NCBI GenBank assembly: GCA_963717525.1
Contig: OY970343.1
Span: 1,920,001 to 1,984,000, forward strand
Reading direction: 5' to 3'
DNA: 64,000 bases
Source of the DNA: an uncultured Methanoregulaceae archaeon
Lineage (GTDB): Archaea; Halobacteriota; Methanomicrobia; Methanomicrobiales; Methanospirillaceae
Below, in pieces: positions 12,003 to 15,000 of the stretch. Each line of letters starts with the position of its first letter. The stretch's first letter is position 1. The position numbers are program-made.

Positions 12003-15000
12003 TTATTGTAAAAAAACGGCATTCTATCCGCAAAAGCCAGGCACAGGACCTCCTTGACCGGCTCGCGCACCAGATCGGACCTTCTGCCGCACTCTTCCAT
12101 GCCGACATGATCGAGATCCTGGAAACCAACGCAGATGTGGCCCTCTTCCTCGTGAACAAAAAACCGCTACTGATGGATACGGAAGCGTGGGTATTTCCCA
12201 CCCTGCGGGGGGCGGTGCAGTGTCCTTTCCCCGAGCGGATGATCACGGTCGATGCCGGGGCAATCCCGTACGTGGTGAACGGTGCGGACGTGATGCGGCC
12301 GGGCATCGTCGCGGTCAGCGACGATGTCGTTGCAGGCAGCCCGGTCCAGATCGCGGACGAACGGCATAAAAAGCCGCTTGCGATCGGCGTGGCACTCATG
12401 GATGGGCCGGCAATCCGTGCGAGCGCATCCGGAAAGATGTGCAAGAATTTCCATCATGTCGGCGATGAACTCTGGAATCTTGAACTGTAACATTTCTGAA
12501 ATGAAAAATAAAGATGAAAAATCGGGCCATTTTTGCCTTTTACATCGATACTATTAAATAATTTTCTTCGTACAGTTTTTTTATGGTTAAGATCATTGAC
12601 ACACTTTTAGGAAAAAATTCCACCAGTTCCGACGATGAGTATATGGATCTGGACCTTAGTTCCTATGAGGAGCATGGCAGGGATTCTCCCGCGCTCCTGG
12701 TCAAGATTGCAACGATTGGCGATCTCAAGGACACGCCGCGGGTCAAGGACGAGGTTTATAACGGCAATATCGTGATCGTCGATATCTCGCGCCTGAAGAT
12801 GGACAAGATCTCCTACGAACGCGTCTTAAAGGACTTAAAAGAAGTAGCAAAGGACGTTAACGGGGACATCATCGGTCTTGGCGACCAGCGGTACGTCGTT
12901 CTCACCCCGATGTCGGTCAAGATCTCACGCGACAAGATTGGCGGGGCATAACGCGGTGCGCACCATCGTCCCGGGACCGTGTCCATATTGCAATACTGAG
13001 ATAGAATACCTCTACAAGACGGAAAATATTCCCTATTTTTCTGATATCCTTATCATCTCTGCCATCTGCCCGTCCTGCGGGTACCGGTTCGTGGACACGC
13101 AGCTCCTCAAAAATGCCGATCCGGTGCGGTACGAACTCCGGGTTGAGACCCGCGAAGATCTTGATGTTCGTGTGGTCCGGAGCATGACCGCACGCATTGA
13201 GATCCCGGAGCTCGGCGTCCGGATCGATCCGGGCCCGGCCTGCGAGGGATTCGTGACGAACGTTGAAGGCGTGCTCGACCGGATCGCCCAAGCCATCCGG
13301 ACCGCAATACGGGATGGCGACGAGACCGAGAGGGAGAACGGGCGCGTGCTCCTTGATCGGATCGAATGCATCAAGGCCGGGAAGATGCCGGTGACCGTGA
13401 TCCTCCAGGACCCGATGGGGAACAGCGTGCTCGTCTCGGATAAGGCACAGAAGACACCCTTTGCGGAAGACGAGCCGGAAGCGTGCAGCGAGTGAGGCCA
13501 GGATTTTTACCAGCCGGGTGTGCTGTTTTTTTATAACGTTGCGGGATCCGATCCTGCAGGTCAGGGGCCGATCTCCCCCATGTCACTTACGATTGGCATC
13601 CGGGTTTTTCTTCAGAAACGCCCCTACCGTAAAACGATTCGGATCATGGGTTTCCCGGACATTCTCCCCTTCATAAGTCCGGTCATGTTTTTGCAAAAGG
13701 GACCGCAGGGATTTCTTCAGTTTGTCCGGGCGCTTTGCGATCTTGGATCGCAACACCGGTTTCAGGATGATCCCCTCCTCTGCCTCGTGGTAATGCTCTG
13801 TACAGAGAACGACAAGAAGCTGCGCCGGGTTATCATCAGGCCGGTGCGGGGAGCGTGAAAGCATGCCAAGCAAAAAAACCTCGAGCTCATCGGGTGGGCA
13901 TACGCGATCGCAGTACTCGCACTTCCCGACCAGTTCCCGGACCTGCTTCTTTGTCTTTGTTGAAAGAGCGATGCGGCTTCGTTTGGGTATGCTGCGATCC
14001 GATGCGAAATCACTGGTCATCTGTCCCTCACTTCAGGATCCTGCATTTTTCCCCGGACACGAGGCAGGGGAGGATCTGCTGGCGTCTACGTGACCTGCAG
14101 ATCCCCGAGCCATGCACCTGATTTCTTGGTCACTTCGCCAACCACCCGGGCGCCTTTCACCATCGTTGTCACCGTGTCCACGGATGCCGGAGGCACGACA
14201 TAGGCGTACCCCATCCCCATGTTGAAGGTGCGGTACATCTCGGCATCGGAGATCTTCCCGGTCTCCTGGATCCACCGGAAGATCGCAGGCGGCTGGAGCG
14301 GAGCATCGAACCGGAAGCCAAACGGGCAGAGCCGCAGGAAATTCAGCAGCCCCCCGCCCGTGATATGGCACATGCCGTGTATGGTGCAGCGATCGGCTAC
14401 CGCGAGGCTCTCGTGGTAAATCCGGGTCGGCGTGAGCAGTTCACGGCCGAGCGTCTTTCCGGTGCTTAGTTTTTCGTCATAGTCCGCATACTTCTCCACG
14501 ATCATCCGCGCAAGCGAGAGACCGTTGCTGTGGATGCCGGTGGACGGGACGCCAATAATTTTGTCACCGGGCCGGATCTTCTCGCCGGTCACGATCCGGT
14601 CCTTTGCCTGCACGCCCACGCAGGTACCGGCAAGATCAAGGCCGTTTACAAGCCCTTTGAGCGATGCGGTCTCGCCGCCCACGATATCGATGTTCGCCTG
14701 ACGCGCCCCTTCGTTCAGGCCAATGCCGATCTGAGCCATCTTCTCCACCGAGAGCCGGTCGGTGGCGATGTAATCGACAAAAGCGATCGGCTCCATGTGC
14801 ATCACGTAGAGATCGTTCACGTTCATCGCGATGCAGTCGATCCCGACCGTGCTCCAGTCCGCGAGTCTGTCGGCCACAAGCATCTTGGTCCCCACGCCGT
14901 CAGTCGTGAGCGCGAGGGCATGCGTACCGAAATCGATCAGGCCGGCGAAGTGGCCGACGTTCCCGAGCATGGTGTGGTGGCCTTTCCGACGGAATGTCAG

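Follow-up and report, generated by a model that had tools for sequence, protein, structure and literature searches.

The gene for SepF, the membrane anchor of FtsZ, is followed immediately by a gene for a ZPR1 homolog in the window, a 64,000-nucleotide stretch of the genome of an uncultured Methanoregulaceae archaeon. An earlier note read this arrangement as a sign that archaeal ZPR1 is a component or dedicated chaperone of the FtsZ-SepF division machinery, and named as its own rival that ZPR1 serves aEF1A. The locus raises the question of why these two genes are kept side by side, and whether their products act together.

Analysis of the window confirmed the pair where the earlier note had placed it. 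sepF (122 amino acids) occupies positions 12583..12951 of the plus strand and the ZPR1 gene (179 amino acids, GTG start) positions 12956..13495 of the same strand, with only 4 nt of sequence (12952..12955, plus strand) between the sepF stop codon and the GTG. Upstream lies a plus-strand gene (11993..12490) for a universal archaeal PUA-domain protein of the arCOG04150/PRK14560 type, recognized by NF011152, PF01472 and TIGR03684 (164.2 bits in a profile search, above the cut-off), and divergent from it is an Lsm/SmAP gene on the minus strand (11550..11780; PF01423, 79.1 bits). Overlap of sepF and ZPR1, or a stop-to-start distance of 4 nt or less, was found in 123 of the 139 loci scored, over half of which are from Methanomicrobiales. 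Based on this spacing, we predict that translation of ZPR1 is coupled to that of sepF, and the two genes are probably co-transcribed.

A conserved TATA-like element is located at 12547..12561 (plus strand), -36 to -22 from the sepF start. Across 77 Methanomicrobiales upstream regions every base of this element is 75-98% conserved and its spacing is fixed, and its first 14 bases have their sole exact copy in the whole genome here. The element is likely the promoter of a leaderless sepF-ZPR1 mRNA that would be separate from the PUA gene. It had been feared that the pair is a mere tail of the PUA gene; since the unit apparently has its own promoter, it is not simply that, and the PUA gene stands immediately 5' of sepF in only 34 of 61 loci. 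A scan with a sigma-70 promoter model, which is unsuited to archaea, gave chance-level counts.

The ZPR1 homolog is a full member of the functionally uncharacterized archaeal family TIGR00340/arCOG04265/COG1779, from which it differs in no way as a protein; it scores 164.7 bits against TIGR00340, where the curated cut-off is 117.95. It is encoded by a single-copy gene, and its nearest relatives are from Methanoregula. PF03367 (residues 6-44) and PF22794 (residues 67-166) cover an architecture of C4 zinc ribbon, beta-sandwich and helical hairpin, and no transmembrane stretch was found in the protein. A structural model predicted from an alignment of 85 sequences reached a pLDDT of 91.8, and its sole significant fold match among solved structures was 2QKD, the eukaryotic tandem ZPR1 (E 1.1e-13). 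Both modules of 2QKD align to the archaeal protein over almost its full length by sequence comparison. Across 85 diverse archaeal ZPR1 sequences only C9, C12, C38, C41, G105, D152 and G155 are invariant; of the motifs once listed as invariant, the zinc-ribbon cysteines hold over these 85 rows, while IPELG and DPxGNS are merely near-invariant. IP-x-F, D47/E, D68-L69, R75-S76, IPEL, VEG and DPxGNS are common to these 85 proteins and to each of the two modules in 75 tandem proteins, which are presumed to be eukaryotic by their architecture. The archaeal protein thus carries the motifs of the eukaryotic-type module, in one copy of 179 amino acids rather than two. A quick, unrooted tree of ZPR1 gave lineage-level groups with 35 of 82 branches open. 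No fusion was found among longer relatives (ZPR1 397-2000 amino acids; SepF 215-2000 amino acids), in a weak search whose ZPR1 arm missed known tandem proteins.

Its partner gene encodes a typical archaeal SepF. The core domain PF04472 was matched at 57.6 bits (cut-off 27), sepF is single copy, and two ORFs with FtsZ signatures lie elsewhere in the genome. Residues 1-11 were scored as an amphipathic helix on a raw hydrophobic moment of 0.51, a value with no null. In family (PF04472, arCOG02263), size, N-terminal amphipathic stretch and presence of FtsZ in the genome, the protein resembles the SepF of Haloferax volcanii (HVO_0392) and that of M. smithii. Known partners of archaeal SepF are FtsZ, CdpB1 and CdpA; the belief that it has none besides FtsZ must be given up, as a 2023 preprint by Nussbaum, in the part available, reports that SepF binds CdpB1 directly. 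The H. volcanii sepF has no ZPR1 neighbor, whereas here ZPR1 adjoins, and the accessible text of Nussbaum 2021 (PMC8187382) describes the H. volcanii gene as essential and its neighboring genes as unrelated to division.

Genome surveys have shown that the pair is far from local. Among 151 Halobacteriota genomes, ZPR1 was matched in 117 and SepF in 149, and in all 116 with both matches listed sepF immediately precedes ZPR1 on the same strand, so that ZPR1 is encoded beside a division gene in every one of them. This adjacency is far above chance. In a small related phylum, that of genome G154 (26 genomes), both genes occur in 21 and stand in tandem in 18, and two of the other three cases are at contig ends. 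For 61 Thermoplasmatota, Pfam detected both families in 21 genomes, with the genes in tandem in 13, head-to-head in 2 and apart in 6. Eleven further genomes of this group appeared to have ZPR1 only; ten of them, Marine Group II-like, proved to carry directly upstream a divergent sepF that Pfam had missed. These divergent SepF proteins gave a profile match of 97.5%, an HMM built without their rows matched all 10, and their inclusion brings the tandem total for Thermoplasmatota to 23 of 31. A tandem pair was also seen at a single Hadarchaeum locus, and same-strand pairs with gaps of 160 and 224 nt at two loci of Woesearchaeota.

Elsewhere the two genes are less closely linked. At a third Woesearchaeota locus they are not paired on the same strand, and in a Nanoarchaeota genome they are 1.6 kb apart on opposite strands. 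All 46 Methanobacteriota genomes have ZPR1; weak SepF matches occur in 31, none in tandem, and in 29 of these 31 sepF and ZPR1 are divergent and no more than 6 kb apart. The genes co-occur in 33 of 41 Asgard genomes and are adjacent in none, and in 5 of 71 Thermoproteota, again none in tandem, with one locus (L241) having them about 2 kb apart. All of these counts are from samples in which relatives are not independent, and phylum labels outside Halobacteriota were taken from each group's seed locus. The census leaves out Thermococci and Methanococci and uses SepF as a proxy for FtsZ; two motif scans aimed at those two groups found none, and loci L224, L225 and L121 are not ZPR1. The pairing had been described as extending across Euryarchaeota, which is too broad. 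It is wider than was claimed in that it reaches the G154 phylum, Thermoplasmatota, Hadarchaeum and Woesearchaeota, but tandem pairs are missing from the 31 Methanobacteriota, and no ZPR1 was found in the haloarchaea-like genomes searched.

The view of a tight and ancient sepF-ZPR1 unit is borne out by adjacency, by the junction and by the unit's own promoter-like element. This contrasts with the accessible part of Pende 2021 (PMC8178401), where the context of sepF is called "more variable" and ftsZ1 is placed mostly amid translation genes; in ZPR1-bearing euryarchaea the context of sepF is highly fixed. The pair is not mentioned in the other available supplements of that study or in its preprint text, and our literature search found no paper that joins ZPR1 with SepF, Supplementary Fig. 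13 of Pende 2021 being a possible exception outside its coverage. Both genes belong to known families; we regard their pairing as real and widespread, and as apparently new to the literature.

Adjacency is only one side of the comparison, since sepF and ZPR1 are also lost and kept independently across archaea. Of 148 Halobacteriota genomes listed, 32 gave a match for SepF and none for ZPR1; 24 of these belong to families taken as haloarchaeal by composition and genome size, and 8 to others. A custom alignment search found ZPR1 absent from all four haloarchaea-like genomes to which it was applied, one match at E 0.6 being discounted, and in control lists H. volcanii matches SepF and not ZPR1, while Sulfolobus acidocaldarius shows the reverse. 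The 71 Thermoproteota divide into 5 with both genes, 26 with ZPR1 only, 14 with SepF only and 26 with neither (odds ratio 0.36, p 0.11, kin not being independent). No hidden sepF was detected in the surroundings of ZPR1 at 15 Thermoproteota loci, which represent 12 of the 26 ZPR1-only genomes and 3 with SepF elsewhere. Three further inspected loci have an intact sepF and a ZPR1 that either lacks the zinc ribbon (two loci) or is broken (one), and at four ZPR1-less loci the PUA gene is still beside or near sepF. Strict co-occurrence with SepF/FtsZ, the pattern of SepF and CdpB, is not displayed by ZPR1, with SepF serving as the proxy for FtsZ. This independent loss and retention makes it more likely that ZPR1 assists the folding of a translation factor than that it serves division.

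Published gene essentiality points in the same direction. According to the accessible parts of Zhang 2018 (PMC6249222) and its supplement, the ZPR1 homolog M164_0237 of Sulfolobus islandicus (TIGR00340/arCOG04265/COG1779) is essential, although the gene table, as available, contains no SepF arCOG or COG for this organism, and the homolog of Methanococcus maripaludis is non-essential; a divisome role would predict the opposite. The same parts of that work place ZPR1 in the last archaeal ancestor, list no homolog for three haloarchaea and for thaumarchaea, and count it among the very few uncharacterized genes exclusive to archaea and eukaryotes. Apart from this work, our literature search turned up no study of what archaeal ZPR1 does. 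With ZPR1 lost independently of SepF, and unlinked to it in Asgard, where both are common, its reading as a divisome component or a dedicated FtsZ-SepF chaperone finds no support, and the alternative that it serves aEF1A fits better.

The genomic surroundings of ZPR1 have also been compared. Where ZPR1 lies apart from sepF, its neighbors include Hsp20, an EF-Tu-like GTPase, PheRS, ProRS, Sec61-beta, DUF2070, SHMT, RpoB and Elf1, and many others are unrelated enzymes. Hsp20 and an EF-Tu-like GTPase adjoin ZPR1 at Thermoproteota locus L252, as in S. islandicus, where the available portion of PMC6249222 gives Hsp20 and a non-essential COG5258 translational GTPase as its neighbors. Hsp20 is also found within two genes of ZPR1 at five other loci. 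The Hadarchaeum locus, L241 and L255 all have genes for Lsm, PUA, aCPSF1 and proteasome beta around sepF and ZPR1, and we read sepF-ZPR1 as the most lasting piece of one old housekeeping neighborhood. Ties of division genes to translation and proteostasis have been seen before. The available text of Liao 2021 (PMC8406309) reports that CdrS binds upstream of ftsZ1, cdpB1, psmB, panA and cdc48d, and that sepF falls upon repression of cdrS. In the accessible accounts of ftsZ1 and of the CdrS regulon, as here, there is co-location or co-regulation without a demonstrated physical link; what sets the present case apart is that just two genes form a tight unit whose junction is conserved.

Based on these observations, we consider it fairly probable, at roughly 0.6, that archaeal ZPR1 is a folding helper of aEF1A whose gene is co-transcribed with sepF in an old translation and proteostasis neighborhood. 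The available parts of two studies (PMC11790920, PMC10869706) report that yeast Zpr1 folds eEF1A, and from homology to that protein aEF1A would be the client. Eukaryotic Zpr1 (2QKD; PF03367 plus PF22794; co-chaperone Aim29) shares its module and motifs with the archaeal protein and is its only fold match; in contrast, it has two modules, whereas archaeal ZPR1 has one, has been lost in many lineages, is operonic with sepF and has a putative client. We suggest that the archaeal protein is a one-module, ancestor-type form of Zpr1 that acts outside the division ring, and that newly made aEF1A would reach its native fold with its help, by means of the zinc ribbon and helical hairpin. In most euryarchaeal lineages ZPR1 would be the second gene of a probably leaderless two-gene mRNA, so that SepF and ZPR1 would be made together. 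The pair may be a remnant of the old neighborhood (Lsm, PUA, aCPSF1, proteasome beta, sepF, ZPR1), presumably retained for shared, growth-linked regulation.

aEF1A itself was present in all five tested genomes in which ZPR1 is absent or truncated, so such a helper would be dispensable in many lineages. Eight aEF1A columns differ in four ZPR1-less genomes; since three of the four look halophilic, the comparison is confounded and we set these differences aside. The aEF1A of Methanobacteriales (four of four rows) has a deletion of about 10 residues in its N-terminal helical region, and ZPR1 is kept throughout the 46 Methanobacteriota. We take the deleted region to be the alpha1-alpha3 motif which, in the accessible literature, is reportedly bound by yeast Zpr1.

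This deletion is awkward for aEF1A as the sole client, and a related possibility is that ZPR1 works in translation or proteostasis on some other client, with a link to sepF that is regulatory only. A GTPBP1-type GTPase, aIF2-gamma, SelB or a wider range of proteins might then be served. The GTPases that adjoin ZPR1 in S. islandicus and at L252 are in keeping with this, as are neighbors elsewhere that include aIF5B, NIP7, PheRS, ProRS, FKBP and PAC2. However, archaeal ZPR1 has the same conserved motifs as the eukaryotic chaperone of eEF1A, and the GTPase beside it in S. islandicus, being non-essential where ZPR1 is essential (PMC6249222, as available), cannot be its only client there. We consider this reading unlikely. 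A role of ZPR1 as dedicated FtsZ-SepF chaperone or core component wherever it is present, the strong form of the original proposal, is highly improbable. ZPR1 does adjoin sepF, and FtsZ is, like the client of the eukaryotic protein, a GTPase; nevertheless, the two GTPases are not related in fold, FtsZ having that of tubulin and EF1A a P-loop fold. Moreover, 26 of 31 ZPR1-bearing Thermoproteota have no SepF match, ZPR1 was not found in the haloarchaea searched, and ZPR1 is essential in S. islandicus, for which no SepF entry is given in the available gene table (PMC6249222). This distribution already contradicts the strong form, which could be upheld only if ZPR1 had changed its function in Sulfolobus specifically.

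The persistence of the pair counts against the preferred reading. sepF-ZPR1 outlasts the other neighbors and persists with a very divergent SepF, inverted or a few kb apart, and plain hitchhiking explains this only loosely. This persistence is our main reason for entertaining a physical link, in which ZPR1 would have a division-linked second role where the genes are paired: SepF would bind ZPR1 and recruit it to where the cell divides, there to serve as an accessory protein of the ring or to link translation-factor biogenesis with division. Gene pairs that are kept for long often encode binding partners, and this one combines a tight junction and its own promoter-like element with tandem order in 116 of 116 Halobacteriota, 18 of 21 genomes of the G154 phylum and 13 of 21 Thermoplasmatota, besides the 10 with divergent SepF and the Hadarchaeum and Woesearchaeota pairs. 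Zinc-ribbon proteins are also known from the haloarchaeal divisome, namely CdpC and, in the available part of a 2026 preprint by He on the Dip system, DipC. The available part of a 2026 preprint by Zheng, the source for CdpC, summarizes CdpA and CdpB without mentioning ZPR1, a silence that is no test because the organism studied lacks ZPR1. Weighing against such a role, SepF is reported as essential in H. volcanii (PMC8187382), which has no ZPR1, and ZPR1 as non-essential in M. maripaludis (PMC6249222), and ZPR1 has no membrane segment. Further, conservation in sepF-adjacent but not in SepF-less proteins is seen at only six columns of ZPR1, and four of these (72, 102, 153 and 156) are equally conserved in ZPR1 distant from sepF. 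No clear SepF-specific patch was therefore seen on ZPR1 in this comparison of 43, 11 and 20 rows, whose groups are small and phylogenetically biased and confounded by crenarchaeal divergence. The corresponding comparison of SepF columns in ZPR1-less genomes is confounded by halophiles. On balance a division-linked second role seems quite unlikely. More specifically, SepF might tether ZPR1 at the membrane or division ring, and in most euryarchaea a factor for EF1A folding that eukaryotes inherited would then couple the capacity for translation physically to division by FtsZ; we regard this as a long shot. Complex prediction with aEF1A (26 rows), two copies of SepF (54 rows) and ZPR1 residues 1-172 (85 rows) gave 0.00 in two runs, which speaks neither for nor against a link, the three-protein design lying outside the calibration.

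If the tethering were true, the pairing would be an ancient link between growth and division, running through Halobacteriota, Thermoplasmatota, Hadarchaeota and Woesearchaeota and including the near-pair at L241; the main model, H. volcanii, has lost ZPR1, and this would be why such a link had escaped notice. Any physical link of this kind would join translation to division in a way not known before. Even on the preferred reading, in which ZPR1 is a folding helper of aEF1A, the finding corrects the picture of a variable sepF context and gives a further example of co-expression between a division gene and one for proteostasis. In ZPR1-bearing archaea, knock-downs of sepF or swaps of its promoter would be expected to affect ZPR1 as well.

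Several further reading frames of the window were noted besides the sepF-ZPR1 pair. Convergent with the gene for the ZPR1 homolog is an ORF of 145 amino acids on the minus strand (window 13583-14020), which contains a CxxC motif and further Cys/His residues; no match to this ORF was found in Pfam or NCBIfam. Two overlapping plus-strand ORFs (16534-17493 and 17490-18161) are apparently one flavoprotein split in two, which by eye we take to be of the fumarate reductase/aspartate oxidase type. The split looks like a frameshift or an assembly error. On the minus strand, the Lsm gene is followed by a short, Cys-rich basic ORF (about 11350-11520) that, judged by eye, resembles ribosomal protein L37e.

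Among loci from other genomes, given here in their own coordinates, altered forms of ZPR1 were also observed. The zinc ribbon is missing from ZPR1 in two genome families, f16 and f20 (L091:2349-2687 and L092:2770-3180), and the gene is broken in genome G006 (L090:2900-3088); the ribbon-less and broken genes still lie immediately downstream of sepF. In one case (L137:2752-3993), a single frame joins ZPR1 and indole-3-glycerol phosphate synthase, which may be an assembly error. In one Halobacteriota genome, sepF-ZPR1 is directly preceded by a same-strand Hsp20 gene (L100:1969-3489).

In the loci L237:3177-8106, L238, L239 and L240 of Methanobacteriota, a phylum label taken from seed-locus titles, the gene order is DUF1611, sepF, DUF2226 and one or more MinD-like ATPases, and a Roadblock/LC7, kinase/3H and ZPR1 run is divergent from it. 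The run of sepF and MinD-like ATPase genes is possibly a division-site cluster. The elongation factor aEF1A of Methanobacteriales (L235, L280, L283 and L293) has a deletion of ~10 residues, at about residues 40-50, within the GTPase domain's N-terminal helical insert.

Marine Group II-like genomes possess a very divergent SepF that is undetected by Pfam (L255:2221-2640; also L257-L263, L265 and L266), in some cases with a long N-terminal extension; its gene is flanked by a divergent proteasome beta gene and by ZPR1. Many of the Thermoproteota SepF matches lie in short frames of 85-110 amino acids (G161, G162, G170, G186, G195, G202, G210, G218, G226 and others), which suggests that the N-terminal membrane helix has been lost from these proteins.
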